The translations under genes and the position numbers were made by a program. Below the pieces are notes generated by a model. That model saw only the letters and a list, made by a program, of their open reading frames with translations, ran no database searches and was not told the DNA's origin. From the NCBI GenBank assembly GCA_965220695.1, contig OZ244838.1, positions 3,395,293 to 3,459,292 of the forward strand: 64,000 bases of DNA, in the 5' to 3' direction. Positions 1 through 51,532 of the stretch are shown here, piece by piece (position 1 is the first letter of the stretch; each line of letters begins with the position of its first letter). Origin of the DNA: Vicinamibacterales bacterium. GTDB taxonomy: Bacteria > Acidobacteriota > Vicinamibacteria > Vicinamibacterales > UBA8438.

Positions 1-307
1 CGATCCCCCGCTCCCGCAGGACGTCCGGGGTCACTTCGGCGCCCGCCTCGAATCGCTCGGACAACGTATCGAGATTCACCACCGCGTACTCGACGCGAAA
101 TGGATTGAAGAATCCGCGTTTCGGCAGCCGCCGATGCAAGGGCATCTGTCCACCTTCGAATCCGCGCTTGTGGTGGTAGCCGGACCGAGACTTCTGCCCT
201 TTGTGACCACGCCCGGACGTCACCCCGGTACCGGAGCCGTACCCCCGTCCGACACGCTTCTTCGCGTGTTTGGCGCCCTTCGGTGGTTTGAGATCGCTGA
301 GATTCAT
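1..307 (-). CDS. rplO: 50S ribosomal protein L15, first ~102 codons (gene continues past window start)
   Basis: Hand translation from ATG at 305-307 (minus): [43 protein letters not shown]... Absent from ORF track because there is no stop in the window. Follows rpmD as in spc operons. Confidence 0.9.
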
Positions 308-312
308 CGGCG

Positions 313-516
313 TCAGCCCTCCACCTCGTTCACGCGCACCAGATGCCGGACCTTCCGTATCATGCCGCGAATGGACGGGACATCCTTGAGTTGAACGGTA
401 TGCCCGATTCGTCGAAGTCCGAGCCCCCGCACGACCTCGGCTTGACGTCTATCGAACCCGATGGTGCTCCGCACCAACGTGACGGTGACTCGGTTGCTCT
501 CCGCTCTTTCTGTCAT
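313..516 (-). CDS. rpmD: 50S ribosomal protein L30
   Basis: ORF 313..552. The last 67 aa ([20 protein letters not shown]...[10 protein letters not shown]...) look like L30. Start trimmed to ATG 516, preceded by GGAG. Confidence 0.85.
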
Positions 517-660
517 CTCCGTCTCAGTATTGTCCCGCATAGCGGGTGACAACCTGCCTCAGGCAACACCTGCGCCCCCGCCCGCATGCTCCTTCGCCGC
601 ACCTGAATCCAAGAGGCTCGTCGCCACTCTCGGTGCGACGCGGCGTGTTGCTGCGGGCGG
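517..660 (-). repeat. diverged copy of the same element filling the rpsE-rpmD spacer
   Basis: The right end ctcggtgcgacgcggcgtgttgctgcgggcgg|ctag aligns with the family right TIR and abuts the rpsE TAG. Internal catgctccttcgcc box. Left TIR not recognisable. Confidence 0.5.
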
Positions 661-1173
661 CTAGGCCGTCAAATCCTCTACATCGACACCACGCAACCGC
701 GCCACGGCGACGGGGTCCTTGAGTTCGGTCAACCCGGTGAACGTTGCGCGCACGACGTTATGCGGATTGTCAGTCCCGAGTGACTTCGTGAGGATGTTCT
801 GTATGCCCGCCGATTCCATGACGGCACGCACTGCACCCCCCGCGATGATGCCTGTACCTTCCCGAGCCGGCTTCAAGAGGACCCGTCCCGCACCGAACCG
901 GCCGACGATGGTGTGCGGAATCGTGGTTCCACTCAGCGGCACACGCACCAGCCCCTTCTTGGCGGCATCGATACCCTTCTTGATCGCCGATGGAACCTCC
1001 TTGGCCTTGCCGACGCCGAATCCCACGACTCCGTGGGTGTCACCTACCACGACCAGCGCACTGAAGCTCAAGTTCTTGCCACCCTTGACGACCTTGGTCA
1101 CCCGGTTGATCGAGACGACCGTGTCCTTGAGGTCGAACTCCCCAGCGTCGATCTTCGTTCGTATCCTATTCAT
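661..1173 (-). CDS. rpsE: 30S ribosomal protein S5
   Basis: ORF 661..1230 with [24 protein letters not shown] motif. Start set to ATG 1173 ([13 protein letters not shown]...), AGGA 8 nt upstream. The upstream ORF part lies in a repeat element. Confidence 0.9.
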
Positions 1174-1187
1174 AAGGCCGTTCCTGG

Positions 1188-1356
1188 CAGCCCGTGGCAA
1201 AAGCCCCGCTGCATTCGGTCGACGCTGCATCCCGCCGACCCGTGTTGTTCATCGGTTGCATACCGCCGGCATGGTCCCTCTTTTCGCCTTACGTTGACCG
1301 GACGCGGCATCATTACAACCAAAGCTCGGTGCAACGCGGGGTTCCACCACGGGCTG
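1188..1356 (-). mobile_element. MITE-like TIR element, near-intact copy (169 bp) between rplR stop and rpsE RBS
   Basis: Ends cagcccgtggcaaaagccccgctgcattcgg ... ctcggtgcaacgcggggttccaccacgggctg are inverted repeats. Flanked by ctgg (left) and ctag (right; its TAG is the rplR stop). Shares internal boxes with 14741-14922 and 44747-44944. Confidence 0.8.
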
Positions 1357-1731
1357 CTAGAACTTCAGTCCAGCACCGCGAGCTGCACCCGCAACTTCGC
1401 GCACACGTCCGTGATACAGAAAGCCGCCACGGTCGAACACCACGCTGGAGATCCCCTTCTCAAGCGTCCTTTCGGCCACGACACGGCCAATAACCTGTGC
1501 CCCGGCCACGTTCCCTCCACTTGCTCCAGCAGGGAGGCTCGCCTTGACACCCGGCTCGGTGCTTGATGCGGACGCCAGGGTCGTGCCGGTCGTGTCGTCA
1601 ATCACCTGGGCAGAAATGTGCGCCAGGCTGCGAAACACGGCCAATCTCGGTCGCTCGGTCGTACCCTTGACCGCCTTGCGTTGCCGCAGCGCGATCCTCA
1701 GACGTCGATCCTTCTTTGTCTTGACCTTCAT
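1357..1731 (-). CDS. rplR: 50S ribosomal protein L18
   Basis: ORF 1357..1761 with [20 protein letters not shown] motif, ends GLKF. Start set to ATG 1731 ([12 protein letters not shown]...); the track start at 1761 is a TTG. Confidence 0.9.
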
Positions 1732-1765
1732 CACACGTTCCAACCGCCACGTAAGGAGCAACTAC

Positions 1766-1910
1766 TCATGGCACCAAGCCTGCGACATTGGCCGGGCGCA
1801 GCGTCCGCGTTGCACGACATTGTTCCAAGGTCAATTGCGCCCGAAATGCTCCCTCTTCTCACCTCCCGCACCGCCGATCTCGATCCGGCGCGGGGTTCTG
1901 CCACGGTCTG
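1766..1910 (-). repeat. diverged full-length copy between rplF stop and rplR
   Basis: Right end gatctcgatccggcgcggggttctgccacggtctg|ctat abuts the rplF TAG. Internal aatgctccctcttc box. Weak left TIR tcatggcaccaagcctgcgacattgg preceded by ctac. Confidence 0.6.
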
Positions 1911-2447
1911 CTATGCCCCGGTCTTGCCCTCTTTCTTTTTCAACACCTCGCCGGTGTAACGGATGCCCTTCTGCTTGTAGGGATCCGGCTTCCGGAGACT
2001 CCGAATGTCCGCGGCAACCTGACCCACCGCCTGCCGGTCGATCCCGGTCACAACGAGATGCGTTTGGTTATCGACCGCTACGCCGATCCCGCTCGGAATC
2101 TCGAAGATGACCGGATGTGAAAAACCGAGTGCCATCGTGAGCCTCTGGCCGGCAACCTCCGCCCTGTATCCGATGCCCACGATGTCGAGCTCCTTCTTGA
2201 ACCCCTCTGACACCCCGGTCAGCGCGTTGGCAACCAGACTCCGCGCCAAGCCGTGGAACTTTCTCAGCGCACGGTCCTCGCGCTCCGGCTTCGCCTCCAG
2301 CCGGCCATCGTTCATCTCAATGACGATGCCCGGCGGAAGCGCCTGACGCAACGTGCCCTTCGGCCCCTTGACCTCAACCGCCTCAGGTGAGATCTGGACC
2401 GTGACCCCGCTCGGGATCGGCATCGGCATCTTGCCCACTCGCGACAT
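1911..2447 (-). CDS. rplF: 50S ribosomal protein L6
   Basis: ORF-track 178 aa, [19 protein letters not shown]...GIGYRA...; spc operon position. Confidence 0.95.
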
Positions 2448-2465
2448 AACTTGACTCCGTCACAC

Positions 2466-2876
2466 CTACCAGACGTTGCACAACACTTCGCCGCCGACAC
2501 CGTTCTTCACCGCATCACGTCCGGTCATCACGCCTTGCGACGTTGTGAGAATGCTCGTTCCGAGACCGCTCAACACCGGTGGCACATCGTCTCGTCCGAA
2601 ATACACGCGCCGACCGGGTCGACTGACACGCTGAATCCCCGAGATGACATTCTCGCCACGCGACCCGTATTTGAGCTGGATACGGACCATCGAACGAGCG
2701 GCCTGCCCCGTCTCGACGACGACGTCAACTACCTTGAAGGCCCGGATGTAGCCCTCGTGCTGCAGAACCCGGGCGAGTTCCATCTTTAGCCGCGATGCCG
2801 GAATATCGACGCGCTTTCGACGCGCAGATGTCGCGTTGCGGATTCTCGACAACATGTCGGAAATCGGATCAGTCAT
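2466..2876 (-). CDS. rpsH: 30S ribosomal protein S8
   Basis: ORF-track 136 aa, MTDPISDMLSRIRNA...GGEVLCNVW. Confidence 0.95.
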   Translation of the reverse strand: MTDPISDMLSRIRNATSARRKRVDIPASRLKMELARVLQHEGYIRAFKVVDVVVETGQAARSMVRIQLKYGSRGENVISGIQRVSRPGRRVYFGRDDVPPVLSGLGTSILTTSQGVMTGRDAVKNGVGGEVLCNVW

Positions 2877-2935
2877 GGCTGTTCAAGTCTTGTACTCGTC
2901 GGGGCGCCCCGCGTTTAGCGGGCGGCCCGTTCCCG

Positions 2936-3121
2936 TCACCAACTACTCTTCGTGACCCCGGCGATGTCGCCTTCAAGCGCCAACTTCCTGAAGCACAGCC
3001 GGCACAGCTCGAACTTTCGCATGAAAGCGCGCGGCCGGCCGCACAGCCGGCACCGGTTTCGGAGTCGGGTCTTGTGCTTGGGCGGTTTGCTTTCCTTGAC
3101 GATCTTCGCAGTCGTAGCCAT
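2936..3121 (-). CDS. rpsN: 30S ribosomal protein S14, short type-Z (zinc-binding) form
   Basis: Internal ATG 3121 of ORF 2936..3244 gives 61 aa [61 protein letters not shown] with CxxC...CxxC. Confidence 0.9.
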
Positions 3122-3204
3122 CACTGTCCTCGTTACCATCCCTACCAGGCTTCTCCCGGAGGGACGAGCCTGAGCGCCGTTGTGAACCCACTGGCGGCCT
3201 GGCA

Positions 3205-3250
3205 CAGCGCCGATCACGGTGCCACCCGCGGTTCCCCCCCCCACGGACTG
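3205..3250 (-). repeat. right-TIR fragment of the element after rplE stop (contains a C9/G9 run)
   Basis: gccgatcacggtgccacccgcggttcccccccccacggactg|ctag aligns with the family right TIR. Its TAG is the rplE stop. Confidence 0.5.
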
Positions 3251-3793
3251 CTAGTTCGTTCGGAACGGCATCCCCATCAACTGGAGCAGCCGCCGCCCTT
3301 CCTCGTCCGTCCTGGCAGTCGTGACCACAGAAATATTCATACCGCGCGACTTGTCGACCTTCATGTAGTCGATCTCGATGAACATCAACTGGTCACGGAG
3401 CCCGAGAGTGTAGTTCCCACGTCCGTCGAACCCTTTGGGCGACACACCCCGAAAGTCGCGCACTCGCGGAAGCGCGATCGAGATCAACCGGTCAAGGAAT
3501 TCGTACATCCGGTCTCGACGCAGCGTGACGACGGCGCCTATGGGCATGCCCTGCCGCACTTTGAATTGCGCCACCGACTTTCGCGCGCGGGTGGTCAACG
3601 GCTTCTGACCGGTGATTCGGGCCAGATCGTCGCTCCCCGCGTCAATCAGCTTCCCGTTTTGCGTCGCCTCGCCCAGCCCCATGTTCACTACGATCCGCTG
3701 AACCTTCGGCACCGCCATCACGTTGGTGTACCGAAATTCCTTCGTGAGGGCGGGCACGACCGTTTCTTGATACCGCTCTTTCAATCGGCTCAT
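3251..3793 (-). CDS. rplE: 50S ribosomal protein L5
   Basis: ORF-track 180 aa, [20 protein letters not shown]...MGMPFRTN. Confidence 0.95.
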
Positions 3794-4122
3794 CTATCGA
3801 CGACCCCATCGCATTTGCGACAAATCCGTACTTTCCGACCGTCACCGAGCAGCCGACGCCCGATCCGAGTGGTTGCGCCGCACTCGGGGCAGACGAGTTG
3901 TACGTTCGAGGCATGCAACGGCGCCTCGCGCTCGACCACCCCACCCTTCACGTTCCGGGCCGGATTGGGACGAGTGTGGCGCTTGACGAAGTTCACACCT
4001 TCGACGATCAACCGGTTCTTCCCCGGCACCAACTGCAACACACGACCACGTTTACCGCGGTCCTTGCCCGAAACCACGACGACGTCGTCGTTCTTCCGGA
4101 TCGGTGTCTGAATGCTCGACAT
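3790..4122 (-). CDS. rplX: 50S ribosomal protein L24 with C-terminal CxxC...CxxC
   Basis: ORF 3790..4134. KOW-type N-terminus ([19 protein letters not shown]) and C-terminal CPECG...CRKCDG. ATG 4122 preferred (AGGAG just upstream); GTG 4134 is the alternative. Overlaps the rplE start by 4 nt. Confidence 0.88.
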
Positions 4123-4175
4123 GACTCCTACCACTCATCGGATGACCGGCACTGCAACCTCTCGATATGCTTCGC

Positions 4176-4544
4176 TCACAGCACCTCCGGCGCAAGGGAG
4201 ACTATCTTCATGAATTTACGCTCGCGCAACTCGCGTGCGACCGGACCAAAGACACGAGTGCCGATCGGCTCACCTTGCTCGTTCACCAGCACCGCCGCAT
4301 TCCCGTCGAATCGGATATAGCTCCCGTCCCGCCGGCGATGTTCCTTGCTGGTCCGCACGATGACCGCGCGCACGACCTGCCCTTTCTTCACGGCCGACGA
4401 CGGCGCCGCCTCCTTGACCGAGGCGGTAACAAGATCCCCGAGCCGCGCATAACGTCCGGTCGCGCCACCGAGCGGATTAATCACCGCGAGCTTTCGGGCA
4501 CCGGAGTTGTCCGCCACGTCGAGAATCGATTGCATCTGGATCAT
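4176..4544 (-). CDS. rplN: 50S ribosomal protein L14
   Basis: ORF-track 122 aa, [19 protein letters not shown]... Confidence 0.95.
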
Positions 4545-4560
4545 GATCGGATCTCGCTCG

Positions 4561-4827
4561 TCAAATCGCCTGAGCTCGTTCGACTACCCGGATCACGGCC
4601 CAGCGCTTGCGTCGGCTCAGCGGACGTGTCTCGACGATGGCCACCACGTCCCCCACCTTCGCGGCATTTTCGGAGTCATGGGCCATGAACTTCGAGGTAC
4701 GTCGCTGGATCTTGCCGTAGAGTTCGTGCCGCACACGGCGTTCCACCGCCACCACGACGCTCTGATCCATCCTGTCGCTTATCACCACGCCCTGAACTTC
4801 TGCCTTGGTTCCCATATCTTTGTCCAA
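4561..4827 (-). CDS. rpsQ: 30S ribosomal protein S17
   Basis: ORF-track 88 aa, ...[29 protein letters not shown]... Confidence 0.9.
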
Positions 4828-4830
4828 CGG

Positions 4831-5055
4831 CTACGCGTCGGTGTCAGTCGCCGCGGCTCCACCGGCGATCGCGTGCTCCCGCAACAGCGTCTTTATTCGT
4901 GCCATGTCGCGCCTGCTCTCCTGCAGCTTAACTGACGCATCCTGCTGCCCCATGGAGTGCCGAAGTCGCAGCCGGAACAACTCCTCGGCCAGCTCCTGCT
5001 CCCGTTGCTCAAGGGCGGCCACGCCGAGTTCACGCAACTCCACGATCTTGGTCAT
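4831..5055 (-). CDS. rpmC: 50S ribosomal protein L29
   Basis: C-terminal 74 aa of ORF 4831..5361 ([37 protein letters not shown]...). ATG 5055 overlaps the rplP stop (ATGA). Confidence 0.88.
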
Positions 5056-5477
5056 GACGACTCGGCCTTCTCCAACCGGGTCGCGAACTTCGTATGGATC
5101 GGCAGCTTCGCCGCGGCCAGTTGCATCGCCCGCTTGGCGACCGACGCCTCCACACCTTCCATCTCGAACAAAATCCGACCAGACTTGACAACCGCCACCC
5201 ATTGTTCTGGAGATCCCTTGCCCTTGCCCATCCGCGTTTCCTGGGGCTTCTTGGTGACGGGTTTGTCCGGAAATATGCGGATCCAGATCTTGCCGCCGCG
5301 CTTGATGAAACGGGTCATTGCGACGCGCGCCGCCTCGATCTGCCGATCCGTCAACCAGCATGGCTCCATCGCACGAAGGCCGTAGTCACCGAAAGACACC
5401 GTCGAGCCACGCCATGCCTTTCCGGTCATGCGGCCCCGATGCTGTTTCCGATGTTTCACCTTTTTTGGCATCAACAT
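5052..5477 (-). CDS. rplP: 50S ribosomal protein L16
   Basis: ORF-track 141 aa, [21 protein letters not shown]... Confidence 0.95.
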
Positions 5478-5590
5478 GACGAAGTACCCTCAAGTGCGAT
5501 CATCGTCCGATCGGGTGCGGCGTCGATACCGACCACACCACCGATCTCGGTGCGACGCGGGGTTTCACCACGGGCTGCTACCACAGGCTG
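5478..5590 (-). repeat. truncated copy (stop-proximal TIR plus SD-like box) filling the rpsC-rplP spacer
   Basis: gatctcggtgcgacgcggggtttcaccacgggctg|cta, then an extra 10-nt tip ccacaggctg before the rpsC TGA. In operon sense, GAGATCGGTGGTG...TTGAGGGTACTTCGTC-ATG(rplP) matches the interior of other copies. Confidence 0.6.
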
Positions 5591-6271
5591 TCAGGTTCTG
5601 GCGCCCCGTCGCGGTGCTCGATACTCTTCATCGCGCGCCAACCGGGGCTCATGCCGATCGCCCTTGTACAACCACACCTTCACACCGATTTGCCCGTACG
5701 TGGTGTTTGCCTCCGCAAACCCGTAGTCCACATCCGCCCGCAGGGTCTGCAGCGGCAACTGACCGTGCAGATACCATTCGTTTCGCGCGATCTCCGCGCC
5801 GTTCAACCGTCCTCCGACACGGATCTTGATTCCCCGTGCGCCGAATCGTAGCGCCGATTCGACCGCCTTGCGCATTGCCCGGCGGAACGCGACCCGTTTG
5901 ACGAGCTGCAGCGCCACCGACTCGCTGATGAGCTGCGCGTCAAGTTCAGGCTTTTGAATTTCCTGAATATTGATGAAGACCTCACGCTTGGTCCGCTTTT
6001 GGATCTCGGTCTTGAGCTTGTCGACTTCAGTGCCCTTCCGCCCGATGATGATGCCCGGCCGGGATGTGCAGATGTCGATCTTCAACTTGTTCGCGGCGCG
6101 CTCGATCTCGATCTTCGATACCCCCGCGTGCGCGAACCGCTTCTTCAGATCTGCGCGCAACGCGAGATCTTCATGAAGGAGCTTCGCGTAGTCGCGGTCG
6201 GCATACCAACGTGACCGCCACGTCTTGTTGAAACCGAGCCTGAATCCGTATGGATGTACCTTCTGCCCCAT
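5591..6271 (-). CDS. rpsC: 30S ribosomal protein S3
   Basis: ORF-track 226 aa, [24 protein letters not shown]... Confidence 0.95.
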
Positions 6272-6356
6272 ATAGCCAACCCCGCGCCCGCGGGCGCTGT
6301 CCCCTACTCCAACCCCTCGGCCGTCGTCTCTGTCGCGGTCTGACTGGCGACCTTCC

Positions 6357-6770
6357 TCACTGGCGCTTCGCCGTCTCGGCCTCGCCGCTGCCTGGCAATG
6401 CCGGCGACGGGACGCGCGTTACAATCTCGGACCGCTCAGCTACCTTGACCGTGAGATGTGCAGTGCGTTTGACAATCCGAAACGCCCGCCCCATGGGTGC
6501 CGGCCGGATTCGCTTCATCGACGGCCCCTGATCGGCGAAACAATGGGACACGTACATCCGCTCGGCATCGCCGCTGGCCCCATCTTTCTGCTGCGCGTTC
6601 GCGACCGCCGAGCGCAGGACCTTCTCTATGTCCCGAGCGATGCGCTTGCGGGCGAACCGCAGGATGGACAGTGCACGGTCTACATCTTGTCCCCTGATGA
6701 GATCCATCACCAGCTTGGCCTTTTGCGCCGATGTCCGGACAAATCGGGCCGTGGCGCGCCCTTCGATCAT
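6357..6770 (-). CDS. rplV: 50S ribosomal protein L22
   Basis: ORF-track 137 aa, [27 protein letters not shown]..., with a C-terminal extension. Confidence 0.9.
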
Positions 6771-6776
6771 CGTCTG

Positions 6777-7064
6777 CTACCTCTTGACGGCCGCAGCCTT
6801 GTCACGTCTTCCGGTGTGTCCTCGAAACAGCCGCGTCGGGGAGAACTCGCCCAGCTTGTGGCCGACCATGTTCTCGGTGAGATACACCGGTACGAATTTC
6901 TTGCCATTGTGTACGGCGATGGTGTGTCCGACCATTTCCGGAACAACCGTGGATCGCCGTGACCAGGTCTTGATCACTCTCCGGTCCCCCGCCCGGTTCA
7001 TAATCTCGACCTTTTCCAGCAACGGCAGGTCCACGAACGGTCCCTTTCTCAGCGATCGACTCAT
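6777..7064 (-). CDS. rpsS: 30S ribosomal protein S19
   Basis: ORF-track 95 aa, [12 protein letters not shown]...[10 protein letters not shown]... Confidence 0.95.
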
Positions 7065-7104
7065 ACACGCCTCGTCTCAAATCCCACGCTCAAGGCCAAG
7101 TCCG

Positions 7105-7935
7105 TCACTTACGTCGTTTCCGGCGTTGGGTTATGAATTTGTCGGACGGCTTCCGGCCGCGAGTCTTGTACCCCTTGGTTGGCACACCCCAGGGCGTCAC
7201 TGGATGGCGTCCGCCAGCAGAGCTGCCTTCGCCACCTCCCAGCGGGTGGTCGACCGGATTCATCGCCACCCCGCGAACAGTGGGTCTGCGACCTAGCCAC
7301 CGCGCGCGACCGGCCTTGCCGAGCGACACGTTTTCGTGATCGACATTGCCGACCTGGCCAACGGTGGCCATGCATTCCTTCAATATCCGCCGCACCTCGC
7401 CGGATGGCATACGCAGCGAAGCGTAGTTGCCCTCCTTCGCGATCAACTGAACGGACGATCCCGCGCTACGGGCGATCTGACCGCCCTTGCCCGGCTTCAA
7501 CTCCACGTTGTGGAGCTGGGTGCCAAGTGGAATGTTCTTCAATGGCAACGCGTTGCCCGGCAGAATATCGACCGCGTCGCCGGCCACGACCGTGTCGCCG
7601 ACTGAGACCCGCGCCGGCTGCAGGATGTAGCGCTTGTCGCCGTCGGCGTAGGCCACCAACGCGATGCGGGCGGAACGGTTCGGATCGTACTCGACGCTGG
7701 ACACTGTACCGGGCACGTCCTTCTTGTTGCGCTTGAAATCGATGATTCGGTAGGTCCGTTTGTGCCCACCGCCACGCTGCCACATCGTGACCCGGCCGCG
7801 GTTGTTGCGACCGCCGGACTTTGGCAACGGCTCGGTCAAAGGCTTGTACGGTTTCGTTGCGGTGATATCGTCGAACGTCTGCACCGTCTGAAACCGCCGT
7901 CCCGGCGATGTGGGCTTGTATTGGCGAATTGTCAT
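7105..7935 (-). CDS. rplB: 50S ribosomal protein L2
   Basis: ORF-track 276 aa, [16 protein letters not shown]...[18 protein letters not shown]... Confidence 0.95.
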
Positions 7936-7978
7936 GGTCCTGTGCGGCTCTTGTCGCTAGTCGATTCGCGTGATCCGT

Positions 7979-8269
7979 CTATGCGCCTTCCAGGAATTCC
8001 GGAATGCTCTCACCGTCCCGCAACCGCACGTACGCTTTCTTCCAATCGGGGCGCTGGCCGATGAATCGCCCCTGCCGCTTGATCTTGCCATGGCTGATAG
8101 CCGTGCGGACGCTTGCCACTTTCGCACCCAGCAACCGCTCGACCGCCTGCTTGATCTCAACCTTGGTCGCCCGCATTGCCACCTCGAGCACGACAGTCCG
8201 GCCGTCTTCGCGCTGCAACGTCGTCTTCTCGGTAATGAGCGGCCGCCGAATCACGTCGGTCTCTTTCAT
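7979..8269 (-). CDS. rplW: 50S ribosomal protein L23
   Basis: ORF-track 96 aa, ...[16 protein letters not shown]... Confidence 0.92.
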
Positions 8270-8889
8270 GATCCCAGCACCTGCTCGAGCCGCTCTACCG
8301 CAGCACGCGTAATGACGATCCGGCGCGCATCGACGACTTCGCGCGCACCAAGGTGACGGGTTGAGAACATCTTCACGGTCGTGAGGTTGCGAACCGCAAG
8401 CGACATGTTCGCATCTGGATTCACATCCACCAGGAGCGTCTTGCCATCCACGTCCAATCGATCCAGCAATTCCGCCGCGTGGCGTGTGCGCGGTTCCTCA
8501 ATGCTCAGCTTGTCGACCACCAGGATCGCTGCATCCTGGAACTTCTGACTCAGCGCCGCCCGCAGCCCGCCGCGCACTACCTTCTTCGGCAACCGATACC
8601 CATAGCTGCGCGGCTGCGGACCGAAAACGATCCCGCCCGACCTCCACAAAGGGTTGCGGCTCTCGCCCACACGGGCGCGACCAGTACCCTTCTGGCGCCA
8701 GGGCTTCTTTCCAGTGCCGCTGACATTGCCTCGGGTCTTGGTCGCGTGGGTGCCACGACGTTCGGAAGCCTGTTGATGTACTACAGCCTCCCAAATCACG
8801 TCAGTATTCACATGACCACCGAATATCTCATCGCTGACCTCGAGCGCCCCGACCTTTTCGTTCTGCAAATCGACGACATCCAATGTCAT
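8266..8889 (-). CDS. rplD: 50S ribosomal protein L4
   Basis: ORF-track 207 aa, ...[27 protein letters not shown]...; 4-nt overlap with rplW. Confidence 0.95.
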
Positions 8890-8914
8890 GGCCGCAATCC
8901 GTCCATCGCTACGA

Positions 8915-9574
8915 CTACTTTTCCGGCGCGACGGTCGCCGGTCCTGCCGCTACCGCCTTACGTACCACCACGAACCCACCGGGCGCCCCGGGCACCGCGC
9001 CCTTGACGACCAGGACATGCTGCTCGGCGTTCACCTGCAACACGCGCAAGTTCCGCACCGTGACCCGGTCGCCGCCCATGCGCCCCGGACCACGCATCCC
9101 CTTGATGACACGCGAGGGGTACGACGACGCCCCGATCGAACCAGGCGCGCGATGAAACATCGACCCGTGGGTTGCACCGCCGCCACCGAAGCCGTGCCGT
9201 TTCATCACCCCCTGAAAGCCCTTGCCGCGGCTGATGCCGATAACGTCGACTGTATCGCCATCTGCGAACACGGATGCCATGACCTGTTCGCCTTCGACGG
9301 GACCGTCGCTGCCCGCGACAACTCCGACTTCCCGCCGCAACTTCGTCGGCGGTACGTTGGCCTTCTTGTAGTGACCGGCTATCGGCTTGTTCACGTTCGC
9401 GGGGGCATCCTCGACCAACCCGAGCTGCACCGCTTCGTAGCCGTCTCGTTCAACGGTCTTCCGCTGCACGACGACACACGGACCGGCCTTGATGACCGTG
9501 GCGGGCGTGACAGCGCCGTCGTCGGCAAACACCTGTGTCATCCCGATCTTGCGCCCGAGGATTCCGGTCACCAT
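8915..9574 (-). CDS. rplC: 50S ribosomal protein L3
   Basis: ORF 8915..9658. Start set to ATG 9574 ([16 protein letters not shown]...), the canonical L3 N-terminus. Confidence 0.92.
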
Positions 9575-9614
9575 GTCGTTCTTCCATTTCACACACCGCC
9601 CCATGGCGGTGTCG

Positions 9615-9984: not shown

Positions 9985-11179
<1,195 letters not shown>

Positions 11180-14296: not shown

Positions 14297-14740
14297 AAGC
14301 ACTCCCTGCGTCGATGACGCTACGGCATCCAGGCCGTCGGACCAGGACGCCAACGACAAATCACCCCAGGCCTGAAAGCCACCGGCTTCGCACCTGAGGC
14401 GGGTTGACCCTATTAGTGTGTGCGCGCTGTAAGGGAAATCCGTACCCCACAAACTGCCGGGTCGGTCGCTCCCAAGCTGGAAAGAGGCGAATCGCGCATC
14501 CCTGTGACCTCTTCGCGGTGCGCCGACACAGGCGCCCGGCGCACCGTCGGCCACACGGCCTCTTTCGGACGGATCGAAGTTAGATAGGGTGTCCTAACTC
14601 CGACAGAACCTTGCGAGGTTACCACGTTCGTCCTGATCCACGCAACAATTGCGCCGGCCCGGTCTTTCCGTTCTCCGATGGCCGCAACATTCCGAAACCG
14701 CACACCGGCGTCCGATTTCATTACCGCACCGATGCGCTGG

Positions 14741-14922
14741 CAGCACGCGATGAAAGCCCCGCAGCATTCGCTCGGCGCTGCATCCCGCAAAGAGCGTCGC
14801 TGGGCGTCTGATCGCCGAGGGCACACACGTCCCAATGCGCTCCCTCTTCGTGCCGTGCACTGGCCGGGCGCGACGTTATGACGAACAGATCTCGGTGCAC
14901 CGCGGGGTTTCACCACAGGCTG
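14741..14922 (-). mobile_element. MITE-like TIR element, near-intact copy (182 bp) immediately after rpoC stop
   Basis: cagcacgcgatgaaagccccgcagcattcg ... ctcggtgcaccgcggggtttcaccacaggctg. Flanks ctgg / ctat (its TAG is the rpoC stop). Internal gctgcatcccgc and gctccctcttcg boxes shared with the other copies. Confidence 0.8.
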
Positions 14923-17900
14923 CTATTCGGTCACCTCGTCTCGACCGAACGCGGCCTCCGGCTCCGCCATATAGTCCATCTCCCGTTCACTCTCGATGTC
15001 CTCTACGGTTCGCGGCGGCGGCGGCGGCTCGTCCGGCGGAATCTGCACGTGGCGGTAATAGTTGAAGCCGGTTCCGGCCGGAATCAACCGTCCCATCGTC
15101 ACGTTCTCCTTCAATCCACGGAGATGATCCACCTTGCCGGAGATGGATGCCTCGGTGAGCACCCGGGTCGTCTCCTGGAATGAGGCCGCCGAAATGAACG
15201 AGTCGGTGGACAGCGACGCCTTGGTGATGCCGAGCAGCATCGGACGGCCGGTTGCCGGACGTCCTCCTTCGGCGATGACCCGATCGTTCTCCTGCAGGAA
15301 CCGGAACCGGTCGACTTGCTCGTCGATCAGGAACTCGGTCGTGCCGACGTCCTCGATCTTCACCCACCGCATCATCTGGCGTGCCACGACCTCAATGTGC
15401 TTGTCGTTGATGGTGACGCCCTGCAGGCGATACACCTCCTGGATTTCGTTGACCAGGTAGCTTTGGAGCGCCTTCTCGCCAAGCACGCTCAGGATGTCGT
15501 GCGGGTTGCTCGGACCGTCCATCAGTTGCTCGCCGGCCCGCACCCGGTCGCCATCCTGCACATTGACGTGCACGCCGCGTGGCAGCGAATATTCCCGCGG
15601 CTCGGCGCCGTCCTCGTCCGGCACGATGATCACCTTACGCATCCCTTTGACGATGCTGCCGATCTTGACCGTGCCGTCGATCTCGCTGATGACCGCCGTT
15701 TCGCGCGGCTTCCGTGCCTCGAACAGCTCCTGGACACGCGGCAAGCCGCCCGTGATGTCCTTTGTCTTGGTCGTCTCGCGCGGAATCTTCGCCAGCACCT
15801 CGCCGGCAGTGACGTTCTGGGCGTCGGTCACCATGAGGTGGGCATGCGAAGGCATGTTGTACTTGCGCTCAAGCTTGCCGGCGGAATTGCGGATCTCCAT
15901 GGACGGCTGCTTTTTCTCGTCAGGCGAATCGACGATGATCAGCCGCGACAGCCCCGTCACCTCGTCCACCTCCTCGTGCACGGTCACGCCCTCGACGATG
16001 TCCTTGAACTTCACGACACCGGCCTTCTCCGTGATGATCGAGAACGTATAGGGATCCCACTCGACCAGCACCTGGGCCTGTTCTACCTGCTGGCCGTCAT
16101 ACACCCGCAGATGGGCGCCGTACACGACCGGGTACCGCTCGCGATCACGCCCCTTGGCGTCCTGAACCACCAGCGACCCGGTACGGTTCATGACGACCAA
16201 TGTGCCGTCCTGGGCCTTGACCCACTGGATGCCATTGAATTTGGCAGTACCGGCATGCTTCGCTTCCAGAGTCGACTGGGCCGACACCCGGGAGGCCGTT
16301 CCCCCTATGTGAAAGGTCCGCATCGTGAGCTGCGTGCCCGGTTCACCGATCGATTGCGCGGCCACAACCCCGACAGCCAACCCCAACTCGGCCAACTCGC
16401 CGGTGCCGAGGTCGCGTCCATAGCACTTGGCACATACCCCGCGTCTCGCCGCGCACGTGAGTACAGACCGGATCTTGACCCTCTCGACCCCCGAGTCCTC
16501 AATTTGCGAGGCAAGATCCTCGGTCACCAGATCGCCGGCCGACGCAATGGCCTCAGCCGTGAAGGGGTCGCTGATGTCCTCGAGCAACACGCGCCCCACG
16601 ATCCGATCACGAAGCGGTTCGATAATCTCGCCGCTCTCGACGATGGCCCGGGAATCGATCCCGTCGAGCGTACCGCAGTCAATCTCCGAGATGATGACGT
16701 CCTGGGCCACGTCGACCAGCCTGCGGGTGAGATATCCCGAGTCGGCCGTCTTCAGCGCGGTGTCCGCCAGTCCCTTCCGCGCACCGTGGGTGGAAATGAA
16801 GTACTGCAACACCGTGAGCCCTTCTCGGAAATTCGACGTGATCGGGGTCTCGATAATCTCTCCGGATGGCTTGGCCATCAACCCACGCATTCCAGCCAAT
16901 TGGCGGATCTGCTGCTTGCTTCCTCTGGCGCCAGAGTCCGCCATGATGTAGACGGCATTGAATTCCTTGCCGCCGGAATCCATCTCCTCCATCTCGTTGA
17001 ACATCTCGTCAGCCACGCGCTCGGTCACGTCCGACCAGATGGCGATAACCTTGTTGTACCGCTCCCCGTTGGTGATCGCCCCTTCCAGATACTGCTGCTC
17101 GACCCGGATCACCTCTTCACTTGCCGTCTTCACCAGTGACGCTTTCTGAGCGGGCACAATAAGGTCGTCGATACCGATCGACAGACCCGACCGGGTGGCG
17201 TAACCGAACCCGAGCTGTTTCAGGCCGTCCAGCATCTCGACCGTCTTGTCGACGCCGTGCCGCAGATAGCAGTACTGCACCAGTTGGCCCAGCCCCTTCT
17301 TCTTGAGCAACCCGTTGACATAGGGCAACTCCGGCGGCAGCGCGCTGTTGAATATCGCACGACCCACAGTGGTATCGATGACCTTCTGCTCGATCTCCAA
17401 CACCTCGGTGCGAAGCACATCCTGGTCGTCTCTGGATGCGGTCAGATCCATCAATCCGCCGCTGATCCGAAGGCGGATGGGGGTCAGGGTCTCCACTTCT
17501 CCGGCGGCCACCGCCAACATCACATCCTCGACGTTGCCGAAGACCCGACCAGCTCCCTTGGCGTTGTCCTTTTGCTTGGTCAGGTAGTAGCACCCCAGCA
17601 CGATGTCCTGCGAGGGGGTGGTAATTGGGGCGCCGTTCGCCGGTGACAGAATGTTCTTCGACGACTTCATCAACACCGACGCCTCGATTTGCGCCTCCGG
17701 CGCCAGTGGGATATGAACCGCCATCTGGTCACCGTCAAAATCGGCGTTGAACGCCGTACAGACGAGCGGGTGAATCCGAATCGCCTTCCCCTCGACGAGC
17801 ACGGGCTCGAACGCCTGAATCCCGAGACGATGCAGCGTGGGCGCGCGGTTCAAGAGCACCGGATGCTCGCGAATCACCTCTTCCAGTACGTCCCAGACTT

Positions 17901-19113
17901 CCGGCAATTGCTGTTCCACCATCTCCTTGGCCTGCTTGATGGTCGCAACCAGGCCACGCTTCTCGAGCTTGTTGTAAATGAACGGCTTGAACAACTCGAG
18001 GGCCATCTTCTTCGGCAATCCGCACTGGTGCAGACGCAACTCGGGACCGACAACGATGACCGAGCGCCCCGAGTAGTCGACACGCTTGCCTAGCAGGTTC
18101 TGCCGAAATCGCCCTTGCTTCCCTTTGAGCGTGTCCGACAGGGACTTGAGCGGGCGGTTGTTGGCGCCGCGCAGCACACGTCCGCGCCGGCCGTTGTCGA
18201 ACAACGCGTCAACGGCCTCCTGCAACATCCGTTTCTCGTTCCGAATGATGACATCCGGCGCCTTCAACTCAATCAGCTTCTTCAGCCGGTTGTTGCGGTT
18301 GATCACACGACGATACAGGTCGTTGAGATCAGAGGTGGCGAACCGGCCTCCGTCGAGCGGCACCAACGGACGCAACTCCGGGGGAATCACCGGAATCACG
18401 TCCAGAATCATCCACTCCGGACGGTTGGTCGACTTCCGGAACGACCCGACCACCTTGAGCCGTTTGGCGTACTTGAGCTTCTTTTGCACCGAGGTTTCGG
18501 CGCGCATTCGGTCTCGCAACTCCTCGGCGAGTTCCTCGATGTCGGCGCGCTTGAGCAGCTCCTTGATCGCCTCGGCGCCCATCCGCGCGCGAAACTGCGG
18601 GCCGTAATCCTCCAACGCTTTCCGATATTGCTCCTCTGTCAATAGCTGGTTTTCTTTGAACTCACCATCGCCCGGGTCGATGACCACGTAAGCCTCGAAG
18701 TAAAGAATCCGCTCGAGGTCGCGCAGCGAAATGTCCAGCAAATGGCCGATGCGGCTCGGGAGCCCCTTGAAGAACCACACGTGGCTGACCGGTGTGGCCA
18801 GGGTGATGTGTCCGAGGCGCTCACGCCGCACCTTGGCCTGGGTCACTTCGACCCCGCATTTGTCGCAGATCACGCCCCGATGCTTCATCCGCTTGTACTT
18901 GCCGCACAAGCATTCCCAGTCGGTCACGGGGCCGAAGATCTTCGCGCAGAAGAGCCCGTCCCGTTCCGGCTTGAAGGTCCGGTAGTTGATCGTCTCCGGT
19001 TTGGTGACCTCGCCGTGCGACCACGATCGGATACGTTCCGGCGAGGCCAAACTGATCCGAAGGGCATCGAAATCGGCGGTCAGTGAACTGCGTTCCGAGA
19101 AACTAGGTCTCAT
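14923..19113 (-). CDS. rpoC: DNA-directed RNA polymerase subunit beta'
   Basis: ORF-track 1396 aa. [12 protein letters not shown] catalytic motif; trigger-loop region carries an SI3-like insertion. Confidence 0.97.
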
Positions 19114-27062: not shown

Positions 27063-28257
<1,195 letters not shown>

Positions 28258-44681: not shown

Positions 44682-44746
44682 CTCGCCGGACGCGGGAGCC
44701 GACCTCGTCCCCACCACCAGACACCCCCCAGCGGGTGTGCGGCTAG

Positions 44747-44944
44747 CAGCCCGTGGTGAAAGCCCCACTGCATTCGATCCCCGCTGAATTCTGCGCTTCC
44801 CCGCGGAATTCTGCTGTTTCACGCTGCATCCCGCGTGGCGGCGTTGCTCCTCGGTCACAAATGCCCCAATTTGCTCCCTCGTCGCGCCTTGCCACGCGGG
44901 CGCAGCGCCAATCTCGGTGCAACGCGGGGTTTCACCACGGGCTG
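44747..44944 (-). mobile_element. MITE-like TIR element, best-preserved copy (198 bp), flanked by CTAG on both sides
   Basis: The terminal 15 nt are perfect inverted repeats (cagcccgtggtgaaa / tttcaccacgggctg). ctag at 44743-44746 and 44945-44948 (the latter holds the purH TAG stop). Carries two extra tandem 20-mers at 44779-44818. Confidence 0.85.
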
Positions 44945-46561
44945 CTAGTGCCTGAAGTGCCGGCGCCCGGTGAACACCATGGCGATGCCGTGCTCATTCG
45001 CGGCGTTGATCACCTCCTCGTCGCGAACGGAGCCACCGGGCTGAACAACCGCTTTGGCGCCAGCCGAGGCAATGGCATCGAGGCCGTCCCGGAACGGAAA
45101 AAACGCGTCCGACGCGGCGGCCGTACCGGACAGGCCGGTTGTCGCCTTCATGACAGCCACATTGACTGCGTCGACCCGACTCATCTGACCGGCACCGATC
45201 GCAGCCAGCCTGTCCGCGGTGGCAAAGACAATCGCATTCGACTTGACGTGCGCGCAGACCCGCCACGCCATGCGCAACGCCGCCCACTCCTCGCCGGTCG
45301 GCTGCCGGGTGGTGACGACCCGGCGATCATCTCCGGCGGCAGTCTGGCCCACGCGGCCCCACGCAGACGCCGCTTCGGTCACCCGATCGTAGCGCTGGAC
45401 GAGAATCGCCCCCAGGATGGAGCGCACTTCCCGGAACATCGGCAGATCCGACGCGCCGTTCCGGCAGTCCGCCAGGACCACGCGCAGGTTCTTCTTCGTC
45501 GTGAACACCGCACGGGCTTCCACGTCGGCGTCTGGTGCGACTACCGCTTCGATGAAGGTCGACGTGATCTCCCTGGCCGTGTCACGGTCGATCGGGCGAT
45601 TCAGACCTACGATGCCGCCAAACGCCGACAGCGGATCAACCTCGCGCGCGGCCACGTAAGCCTCGCGCAGCGACGGCGCGGTGGCCACTCCGCATGGATT
45701 CATGTGCTTCACTACAACCGCTGCCGGCTCTTCGAACTCGCTGATCAGCCTCGCCGCCGCGTCGAGATCCAGCAGATTCGTGAACGAGAGCTCCTTCCCC
45801 TGCACGACCTCGGCGCCGCCGAACCCCCGCGGGCCGGCGCCATACATGGCCGCAATCTGGTGCGGATTCTCGCCATACCGCAAGCGGCGTTGCCGCACCG
45901 CTTCCAGAACCAGCGTGTCGGGGACCAGCTCATCGGAGGACGAGGTCCCGCGTGAGAAGACACCGTCGTTGACCTCAACCTCGGACAGGGCCCTCGAAAT
46001 CATGGCGTCGTAGGACCGGGTGTGCGAGAACGCCTTGATCGCCAGCGACAACCGGAACTCGGCAGTGGGTCCTCCGGCCCGGTCGAGTTGTTCCATCGTG
46101 CTGCGATAGTCCGCCGGCTCAACCACCACAAGCACATGCTGGAAGTTCTTGGCGGCGGCGCGGACGAGCGTCGGTCCTCCGATGTCAATCTCTTCGACAA
46201 GCGCCTCGACAGTCGTGTCGGGATCGGCAGCGGCCTGCGCGAACGGGTAGAGATTGACGACGACGATGTCGATCGGCTCGATGCCACGGGCTCCGATTGC
46301 CTCCAGATCGCCCTGGCGATCGCGGCGCGCGAGAATGCCGCCGTGTACCGCCGGGTGCAAGGTCTTCACCCTCCCATCCAACATCTCAGGAAACCCGGTG
46401 ACAGAGGACACGGGGGTCACCGGGAGCCCTGCCCGGGCCAGGATTCGCGCGGTGCCACCGGTCGACACGAGTTCGTATCCGCGGGCCTCCAACCCTCGCG
46501 CGAATTCGACGAGATCCGATTTGTCCGACACACTCAACAATGCTCGCATCCGCTCGCTCAC
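44945..46561 (-). CDS. purH: bifunctional AICAR transformylase / IMP cyclohydrolase
   Basis: ORF-track 538 aa, ...[18 protein letters not shown]...GGTA...[12 protein letters not shown]..., ends [12 protein letters not shown] 46561 preceded by GGGAGGAG. Confidence 0.95.
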
Positions 46562-50260: not shown

Positions 50261-51532
50261 TTAACCGAAATCGTCGAACAGGATATTCTCGGGTTCCACT
50301 CCGATCGAGTCGAGCATGTTCATGCAGGCCTTGAGCATCATTGGTGGGCCGCACAGGTAGTACTCGATGTCTTCAGGCGCCCGGTGCGTCGCGAGATAAT
50401 TGTCGAACACGACCTGATGGATGAAGCCGGTATAGCCGGACCACTTGTCCTCCGGCAACGGCTCGGACAACGCCAGGTGCCACGCGAAATTCTCGTGCTC
50501 ATTCGCGATGGTATCGAAATCGTCGAGGTAGAACGCCTCGCGCAAACTGCGCGCACCATACCAGTACGACACTTTTCGGGAGGTTCCCAGCCGCCGGAAC
50601 TGGTCGAAGATGTGAGACCGCATCGGCGCCATGCCGGCGCCGCCGCCAATGAATATCATCTCGGCTTCGCTCTCCTTCGCAAAAAACTCGCCGAACGGCC
50701 CTGAGATGGTCACGTCGTCGCCCGGCTTCAGGTCGAAGATGTACGAGCTCATCTTCCCCGGCGGCGTCCCTTCCGGCGCCCGCGGCGGTGGCGAAGCCAC
50801 CCGTATGTTGAGAATGATGACGCCACGTTCCTCCGGATAGTTCGCCATCGAGAACGCACGGGTCACCGGTTCTTCGATCGTCGACACGTAGCGCCAAAGA
50901 TTGAATTTATCCCAGTCGGCGCGATACTCCTCGTCGATGTCGAAATCGGCGTAGTTCACGGTACCCGGCGGTGCTTCGATCTGGATGTAGCCTCCCGCAC
51001 GGAACGGCACCGACTCCCCCTCAGGCAGCACGAGTACGAGTTCCTTGATGAAGGTGGCGACGTTGTTGTTCGACCGCACCCTGCAGCGCCACTGCTTGAC
51101 CGTGAACACCTCGGGCGGCAGTTCGATCTCCATGTCCTGTTTCACCTTGACCTGACAGGACAGGCGTTGTCCGTTGCGCGCCTCGCCGCGCGAGATGTGA
51201 CTCAACTCCGTGGGCAGAATCACGCCGCCGCCGTCACGCACCGTGACCGTGCAGACACCGCAACTACCCTTCCCGCCGCAAGCCGACGGAATGAAGATAC
51301 GGTTCGACGCCAAGGTGCCGAGCAGGGTCCCGCCGGCACTGGTGCAGAGGGCCTTGTCCGGATCGCCGTTGACGGTGATGGTCACGTCGCCGGTGGCCAC
51401 GAGCTGCCGCCGGGCAAGCATCAGCAATCCCACCAGCGCCACGACGGTGAACGTGAACATGCCGACACCCAGCAGGACGGTGGTCACAACGGTGAACGTG
51501 AACATGCCGACACCCAGCAGGACGGTGGTCAC
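50261..51532 (-). CDS. nqrF: Na+-translocating NADH-quinone reductase subunit F (N-terminal TM segment duplicated)
   Basis: ORF 50261..51679. GTG 51532 overlaps the nqrE stop (GTGA). 2Fe-2S motif [12 protein letters not shown]; [12 protein letters not shown] motif. Confidence 0.9.

Follow-up and report, generated by a model that had tools for sequence, protein, structure and literature searches.

An old CTAG-targeted hairpin MITE between rplR and rpsE in Vicinamibacterales, probably tolerated as a by-product of its family structure

In the window analysed here, a stretch of 64,000 nt from a Vicinamibacterales bacterium, the minus strand of positions 1-9600 carries part of an S10/spc ribosomal-protein operon (ORF list), and within it the genes for ribosomal proteins L18 (rplR) and S5 (rpsE) are separated by a spacer of 183 nt from the rplR UAG to the rpsE AUG. 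The spacer holds a repeated element that starts directly at the stop codon of one gene and ends beside the ribosome-binding site of the next, which raises the question of whether this placement serves the junction or follows from the way in which the element inserts. A first-pass annotation had proposed that the insert folds out as a long hairpin, so that a ribosome terminating at the L18 stop stays close to the S5 start and coupling could be preserved. We consider it very probable that the insert is a fixed, old MITE insertion into the CTAG at the rplR stop codon, with its hairpin tolerated there as a generic by-product.

In the operon sense, rplR ends in AAG UUC UAG (1359-1357), followed at once by the 5' arm of the insert, CAGCCCGUGGUGGAACCCCGCGUUGCA (1356-1330). 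The other end reads UGCAGCGGGGCUUUUGCCACGGGCUG (1213-1188), CCAG (1187-1184), GAACGGCCUU and AUG (1173-1171). The insert begins at the base after the rplR UAG (1356), as had been described. It also ends 14 nt before the rpsE AUG as described, but it does not strictly adjoin the AGGA, which begins 2 nt later: the A of CCAG (1185) opens this motif, and the G (1184) completes it with the GA that follows. The L18 C-terminus preceding the insert is conserved in relatives. The features of the junction and the related elements are listed in Table 1.

Table 1. Features of the rplR-rpsE junction and related elements (positions in the window unless given for genome G000)
Feature	Position	Strand	Remarks
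rplR (ribosomal protein L18)	1357..1734	-	Stop UAG 1359-1357; start may lie further upstream
Left CTAG	1357..1360	-	C 1360 is the last base of the Phe codon, followed by rplR UAG 1359-1357; target tetranucleotide and left flanking repeat of the MITE
MITE body, 169 nt, long subfamily	1188..1356	-	Genome searches with blastn and nhmmer; aligned to 25 further full copies
Terminal stem, 5' arm CAGCCCGUGGUGGAACCCCGCGUUGCA	1330..1356	-	Initial 16 nt are the terminal repeat of the resident IS
Terminal stem, 3' arm UGCAGCGGGGCUUUUGCCACGGGCUG	1188..1213	-	Sequence and RNAfold
Right flanking repeat CCAG	1184..1187	-	Degenerate CTAG, T to C
rpsE Shine-Dalgarno AGGA	1182..1185	-	8 nt upstream of AUG
rpsE (ribosomal protein S5)	661..1173	-	AUG 1173-1171; ORF list; L001 orthologue 96% identical
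Decayed copy, rplF-rplR	1767..1913	-	Starts at rplF UAG; terminal stem largely lost
5'-half copy, rpsE-rpmD	583..664	-	Starts at rpsE UAG; without 3' arm
Family 5' end (TAGCAGTCCGTGG) then G9 run, rplE-rpsN	3205-3249		After rplE stop
5' fragment (52 nt), rpsC-rplP	5530..5580	-	
Full copy at stop codon of 1375-aa gene	14738..14925	-	Gene 14923-19050, rpoC by position
Full copy, convergent gene junction	44744..44948	-	CTAG flanks
Resident IS, full copies	G000 316989-318453; 1553239-1554702; 3820207-3821671		

Folding of positions 1150-1400 (minus strand) with RNAfold reproduced, pair for pair, the 25-bp terminal stem of the first-pass annotation: 10 Watson-Crick pairs, 3 G-U pairs, 2 A-U pairs, a 1-nt C bulge, CCCCGC/GCGGGG, a 2-nt internal loop and UGCA/UGCA. 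The order along the 5' side of this predicted helix is UAG, CAGCCCGUGG, UGG, AA, CCCCGC, GU and UGCA, and along the 3' side UGCA, GCGGGG, C, UUUUG and CCACGGGCUG, followed by CCAG, GAACGGCCUU and AUG. The MFE of this region was -104.9 kcal/mol (z = -2.67), and none of 200 shuffles folded as well; for the element alone, at -81 kcal/mol, a single long hairpin is predicted, as had been proposed. In addition, the MFE structure carries the helix further outward than had been described, with the G of UAG paired and with UUCU (the last rplR codon and the first base of the stop) pairing with AGGA. The L18 stop and the S5 Shine-Dalgarno sequence (SD) thus both lie at the base of one predicted helix. 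In partition-function folding, the probability that the SD core (GGA) is unpaired was 0.12-0.15 in the free mRNA and 0.66-0.99 when a ribosome footprint was imposed at the L18 stop. An SD masked by the base of the stem and unmasked by a ribosome at the upstream stop is, as predicted, the classical logic of translational coupling, and these models make hairpin-bridged coupling a plausible and fair hypothesis for how operons tolerate such insertions.

A consensus scan of positions 500-2500 for promoters and terminators found nothing, and the element shows no sign of an rpsE promoter or terminator. MIRUs have been proposed to keep coupling by means of small ORFs that reach into the stop codon on one side and the start codon on the other. 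A MIRU-like coupling ORF was rejected here because no reading frame is conserved in the family, which differs from MIRUs in this respect. A frame ending in AUGA at the rpsE start is open in the rplR-rpsE copy, but it is not conserved in the family, and its phase relative to rplR differs between the window and the sister species L001. The three frames were open in 29, 27 and 47 of 116 copies (23-41%), which is about the level of chance.

The insert belongs to a large family. A 21-mer from the arm (CAGCCCGTGGTGGAACCCCGC) had five matches in the window at up to 3 mismatches, against 0.00 expected, and the 5.8-Mb, 67% GC genome G000 gave 437 nhmmer matches (roughly 430), equally split between the strands, including 119-130 full-length copies. 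Full copies are 160-180 nt long, start with CAGCCCGTGG and end with CCACGGGCTG, and most have CTAG on both flanks. Across the order, the family was found in 33 of the 41 Vicinamibacterales genomes sampled, with up to ~500 candidate copies per genome. The copy at rplR-rpsE is intact but old, since it is only ~80% identical to other family copies and 82% identical at best. The remnants at rplF-rplR, rpsE-rpmD, rpsC-rplP and rplE-rpsN retain 0-9 terminal pairs, compared to 23 at rplR-rpsE.

The RNAalifold consensus of 68 copies of the main subfamily is one long hairpin in which 95.6% of cells are paired. Double-sided changes were found at 31 pairs (277 cells) among these copies, compared to 14-19 pairs (21-46 cells) in a control in which the partners were slid by 1-3 columns. 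Copies from ten other genera also carry compensatory changes in the arms, with the variants GTCCTG/CAGGAC, GTGCCGC/GCGGCAC and GTCCAGC/GCTGGAC as opposed to ACCCCGC/GCGGGGC, and the inner stems and the apical stem-loop covary as well. The hairpin is a property of the family and not a local adaptation.

The two strands of the element are not equivalent. The sense RNA is predicted to be more stable than the antisense RNA by 9 kcal/mol on average, which holds in 105 of 116 copies, and G-U pairs far outnumber A-C mismatches. This asymmetry is equally strong in copies that are sense and antisense to local genes; selection in the transcribed strand after insertion was therefore rejected as its cause, and it came with the source copies instead of arising locally. 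Among co-directional intergenic copies, 160 are sense and 84 antisense (p = 1e-6). The direction of replication was rejected as the cause of this bias (227 leading and 205 lagging copies, p = 0.31), and the bias follows transcription, indicating that either retention or insertion is sensitive to transcription. It follows that some selection at the transcript level acts on the family and that a purely neutral view is incomplete. About 26 copies in the genome fill the entire spacer from stop to start, 17 in the sense and 9 in the antisense orientation; an extra sense bias among these bridging copies was predicted but not seen (17:9 versus 160:84).

The family is mobile. The copy at 5798199-5798363 in G000 is absent from the sister genome G001 of the same genus, where the clean empty site reads GCTGCTG-CTAG-CCAACG with contiguous flanks that are 98% identical, compared to CTAG-element-CTAG in G000. 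A copy flanked by CTAA/CTAA provides a second empty-site candidate, at which G001 reads GCGT. For another copy (5720633-5720797 in G000), the flanks lie ~1.9 kb apart in G001 (C1:3546250-3548348), suggesting that something larger, possibly a full IS, occupies the site there.

A likely partner is a resident IS of 1465 bp, present in G000 as three full and several partial copies. Its ends are CAGYCCGTGGTGAAAGT... and ...CTGCCACGGGCTG (the 3' end can also be written CTTCTGCCACGGGCTG), and their first 16 nt are the terminal 16 nt of the MITE (CAGYCCGTGGYRRAAG). One copy of the IS is flanked by TTAG/TTAG. The IS product of 456 aa contains DUF772 (PF05598, 9e-18) and DDE_Tnp_1 (PF01609, 2e-6) domains. 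Its best NCBIfam model is NF033551 (IS1182) at 1e-47 and 163 bits, below the cut-off of 270, and it scores 86 bits against NF033581 (IS5), below the cut-off of 140; from these matches the IS1182/IS5 superfamily is clear, with IS1182 the best-scoring candidate, although below the curated cut-off. The genome also holds about 12 IS630-family copies (G000:C1:1025483-1025941 and ~11 others), each in CTAG with a TA duplication, and thus a second mobile element that competes for the same rare tetranucleotide. An IS630 origin of the MITE was rejected, as the ends of these DDE_3-type copies (TA-GTGCTGCGCCAC.../...GTGACGCAGCAC-TA) are unrelated to CAGCCCGTGG, and the comparison of IS ends supports IS5/IS1182 ancestry as the more probable one. 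The family is short, noncoding, bounded by TIRs, dispersed in many copies, flanked by repeats, polymorphic and matched to an IS, which are all the features by which a MITE is recognised.

The target of the family is CTAG/YTAR. CTAG was found at 111 of 279 left ends and at 92 of 270 right ends, and TTAG and CTAA also occur as flanks. This tetranucleotide is ~14-fold depleted in the genome (1303 occurrences versus ~17,700 expected). The left ends of 65 of the 279 copies and the right ends of 43 of the 270 lie at called stop codons, which amounts to ~39% of insertions, and the stop codons of ~100-108 genes in G000 abut an element end. Unoccupied CTAG sites comprise 273 stop codons, 467 other intergenic sites and 344 intragenic sites. 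When the non-genic sites are taken as those that tolerate insertion, 37% of them are stop codons, and adjacency to stop codons is therefore expected from target choice. It also holds in either orientation: in tandem (co-directional) intergenic regions the upstream stop is adjoined by 34% of the sense copies and 33% of the antisense ones.

The target duplication may be either TA or the full CTAG, as the flank statistics conflict: concordance of T with T and of A with A at position 1 favours 4 bp, and GTAG/CTAG pairs favour TA. The CCAG at the right end of the rplR-rpsE copy is the commonest variant at right ends of the family (44 of 270), and it is also present in the L001 orthologue and at the same junction in L007, L008, L010 and L011. 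Flank decay in the family is asymmetric, with CCAG on the right (44) and CTGG on the left (38) greatly exceeding the opposite changes (13 and 15). Together with the depletion of CTAG, this pattern resembles the outcome of a directional repair bias from T:G to C:G, of the very-short-patch kind, or of selection acting against CTAG.

Many relatives without an insert carry TTCTAG at the rplR stop, so that this CTAG is ancestral, and in more distant relatives the rplR-rpsE junction is only 2-3 nt (TTCTAGGCATG). Before the insertion, the junction would have read TTC-TAG-GAACGGCCTT-ATG, with the stop overlapping the SD. The MITE, of a family presumably mobilised by the resident 1465-bp IS1182/IS5-like IS, would then have inserted into the CTAG in which the UAG stop is preceded by the closing C of the last rplR codon. 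Duplication of the target would have kept the L18 UAG on the left and supplied the A that opens the S5 AGGA on the right, and because the target is duplicated on both flanks, rplR and rpsE would both have kept their signals. Within the operon transcript, a fold-back of the insert is the most likely structure; the base of its helix would mask the SD weakly, and the helix would be opened by a ribosome that terminates on reaching the L18 stop. From the predicted folds we infer that the hairpin forms in vivo and makes the insertion tolerable; in our reading, this tolerance is a generic by-product of the hairpin and not a function selected at rplR-rpsE.

The sister species L001 carries this insertion too, with an element that is 79.9% identical, compared to 76-85% identity at the third codon positions of the flanking genes. 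The L001 stem is interrupted by C·A, A·A and A·C, none of them compensated, and its predicted energy is -68.6 kcal/mol versus -80.9 kcal/mol for the window copy. The SD in L001 is predicted to be free even without a ribosome (0.95 unpaired). Divergence at the rate of third codon positions, with uncompensated mismatches, gives no sign of local selection on the stem. The long hairpin with stop and ribosome-binding site brought together, as envisaged in the first-pass annotation, is borne out by the models, which also predict the unmasking of the SD, but selection for this arrangement at rplR-rpsE left no sign: the CTAG target accounts for the adjacency to the stop, the stem is generic and the orthologue decays. 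In L001 (2310-2320) the rplR stop is UGA rather than UAG; two substitutions, TAGCAG versus TGACAG, preserved a stop there and altered the element at its first base.

An insert persists at the rplR-rpsE junction in L001, L007, L008, L010, L011 and L012, and those in the latter five have a common right junction, GGGCTGCCAG(A/G)AA. A weak closing helix, UUCU/AG(A/G)A, was found for the persisting inserts in every fold of the isolated spacer. Constraint and not common ancestry could lie behind this recurrence; common descent together with a target that is partly a palindrome accounts for it without selection. In L010 (2200-2500), the rplR-rpsE spacer is 290 nt long: the 5' arm of the family follows UAG directly, another, unlike element is nested within, and the right junction is the shared one, GGGCTGCCAGAAA. 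Either this site attracts insertions repeatedly, as a landing pad, or an ancient insertion there was invaded again later.

It is unlikely, in our estimate, that the stem is an adaptive device kept to juxtapose the L18 stop and the S5 SD and to maintain coupling despite the 183-nt spacer. The idea draws on the predicted 25-bp stem, whose base holds both stop and SD, on the predicted masking of the SD in free mRNA and its unmasking by a ribosome footprint at the stop, and on the retention of the insert in at least two species and the recurrence of the closing helix in other lineages. However, the L001 copy has diverged as fast as third codon positions, its stem mismatches are uncompensated and its SD is predicted to be free, remnants without a stem lie at other junctions of the same operon, the bridging copies (17 sense and 9 antisense) show the 2:1 ratio of the family without extra enrichment, and the stem is a generic family property. 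The same long, near-perfect 25-bp duplex would be a plausible substrate for RNase III, and cleavage of the paired ends, as for Correia elements, could split the spc transcript between rplR and rpsE into halves of different stability. The genome encodes RNase III (rnc, 238 bits, above the cut-off), paired Correia TIRs in transcripts are cleaved by this enzyme (PMC10969869), and the orientation bias of the family with respect to transcription fits an effect at the RNA level. This reading nevertheless appears doubtful, as RNase III could be hindered by the G-U pairs and the bulge as antideterminants, cleavage at up to five junctions of an essential ribosomal operon would have to be harmless, and the stem decays in the L001 orthologue.

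The first-pass annotation had also pointed to stalling of terminating ribosomes by REP hairpins in E. coli. The precedent is real: according to Liang et al. (2015), as relayed in PMC12306157, REP hairpins no more than 15 nt from a stop codon stall ribosomes and cut expression, and the stem at rplR begins 0-1 nt after the stop. A stem that stalls the ribosome might lower L18, trigger mRNA cleavage or trans-translation and so regulate stoichiometry. We regard such a termination brake as very improbable, because it would be costly for L18, which is essential, highly expressed and needed in equimolar amounts, because ~108 genes of all kinds share the arrangement simply through target choice, and because the stem is not conserved at rplR-rpsE. 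Finally, full-length covariation, strand-specific G-U pairs and conservation of the family across the order might suggest a conserved structured RNA gene or an rpsE regulatory leader, repeated by chance and not a transposon at all. Against this stand hundreds of dispersed copies in both orientations, CTAG on both flanks, the clean empty site in G001, terminal repeats common to a transposase-encoding IS, no Rfam match to window positions 1-8000 at E <= 1 and no promoter-like site in positions 500-2500. The polymorphic presence of copies and the ends held in common with the IS in practice refute this reading, and we give it next to no weight.

Read as a MITE insertion, the element resembles several known systems. 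MITEPsy1 of Pseudomonas syringae, derived from the IS5-family ISPsy2, is a precedent for a 4-nt CTAG/YTAA duplication by an IS5-type MITE (PMC3189936). Like MITEPsy1 and the IS5-group MITEs, the Vicinamibacterales element is short and noncoding and shares its TIRs with a resident IS of the IS5 superfamily. In contrast to MITEPsy1, its ends are unrelated, it is 165-180 nt rather than 100 nt long, it occurs in hundreds of copies per genome across the order, it has a full-length covarying hairpin, and its partner transposase matches IS1182 better than IS5 proper, though below the cut-off. Correia elements of Neisseria and ERIC elements of enterobacteria (Yersinia) are abundant MITEs that are co-transcribed with their neighbours, with ends that fold in the mRNA and an orientation that matters, and ERIC insertion at the 3' end of a gene alters transcript levels (PMC10969869). 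The Vicinamibacterales family is likewise an abundant MITE, whose ends are predicted to pair and which would be co-transcribed with its neighbours. It has no sequence relationship to Correia or ERIC and no Rfam match, and it targets CTAG, whereas the target of Correia elements is TA.

Like the E. coli REP elements near stops studied by Liang, Rudd and Deutscher (2015), the insert is predicted to form a stable hairpin outside genes, no more than 15 nt from a stop codon. REPs are palindromes of 20-40 nt associated with a REP-specific transposase, TnpA(REP) (PMC8266576), whereas the hairpin at rplR-rpsE spans 169 nt, belongs to a TIR-bounded MITE and has a 3' arm that adjoins the SD of the next gene. 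Assignment to REP/BIME, defined by an imperfect palindrome of 20-40 nt with a GTAG/CGTC head, was rejected in view of the length of 165-180 nt, the DDE-type repeats and the CTAG flanks. Repeats that lie between operon genes without destroying the operon are also indicated by the titles, cited in PMC3184786, of papers on the mycobacterial MIRU (Supply et al. 1997) and the Chunjie MITE of Geobacter uraniireducens (Chen et al. 2008). A literature search found no published description of this order-wide Vicinamibacterales MITE; the family is an undescribed CTAG-targeting hairpin MITE family of a kind that is already known.

The hairpin could also be an evolved feature of the family that is self-insulating, in that a sense insert loops out of the host mRNA and the duplicated CTAG regenerates the stop codon. 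We think this rather improbable. If true, it would allow stop codons to be colonised at low cost, even at tightly coupled operon junctions (five in the ribosomal operon), it would account for the covariation and the conservation of the family across the order as well as for the G-U asymmetry and the 2:1 excess of sense copies, and the rplR-rpsE copy would offer a natural case in which to test translational coupling bridged by a long-range hairpin. Under the preferred reading of a tolerated insertion, the design-like placement at stop and SD is explained by the CTAG rule and target duplication, which is a caution against reading function into the positions of MITEs. The ~100 stop codons that abut an element and the several occupied junctions of the S10/spc operon form a natural system for studying the tolerance of coupled operons to spacers and structure. 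The family also allows a test of RNA-level selection on MITE hairpins, given its 2:1 sense bias and the sense advantage of 9 kcal/mol.

Two repeats of another kind were observed in the window. Positions 9985-10284 and 27063-27362 form a perfect direct repeat of 300 nt, 17 kb apart, and these positions match two tuf genes. Positions 51440-51529 consist of two tandem units of 45 nt that are 98% identical.
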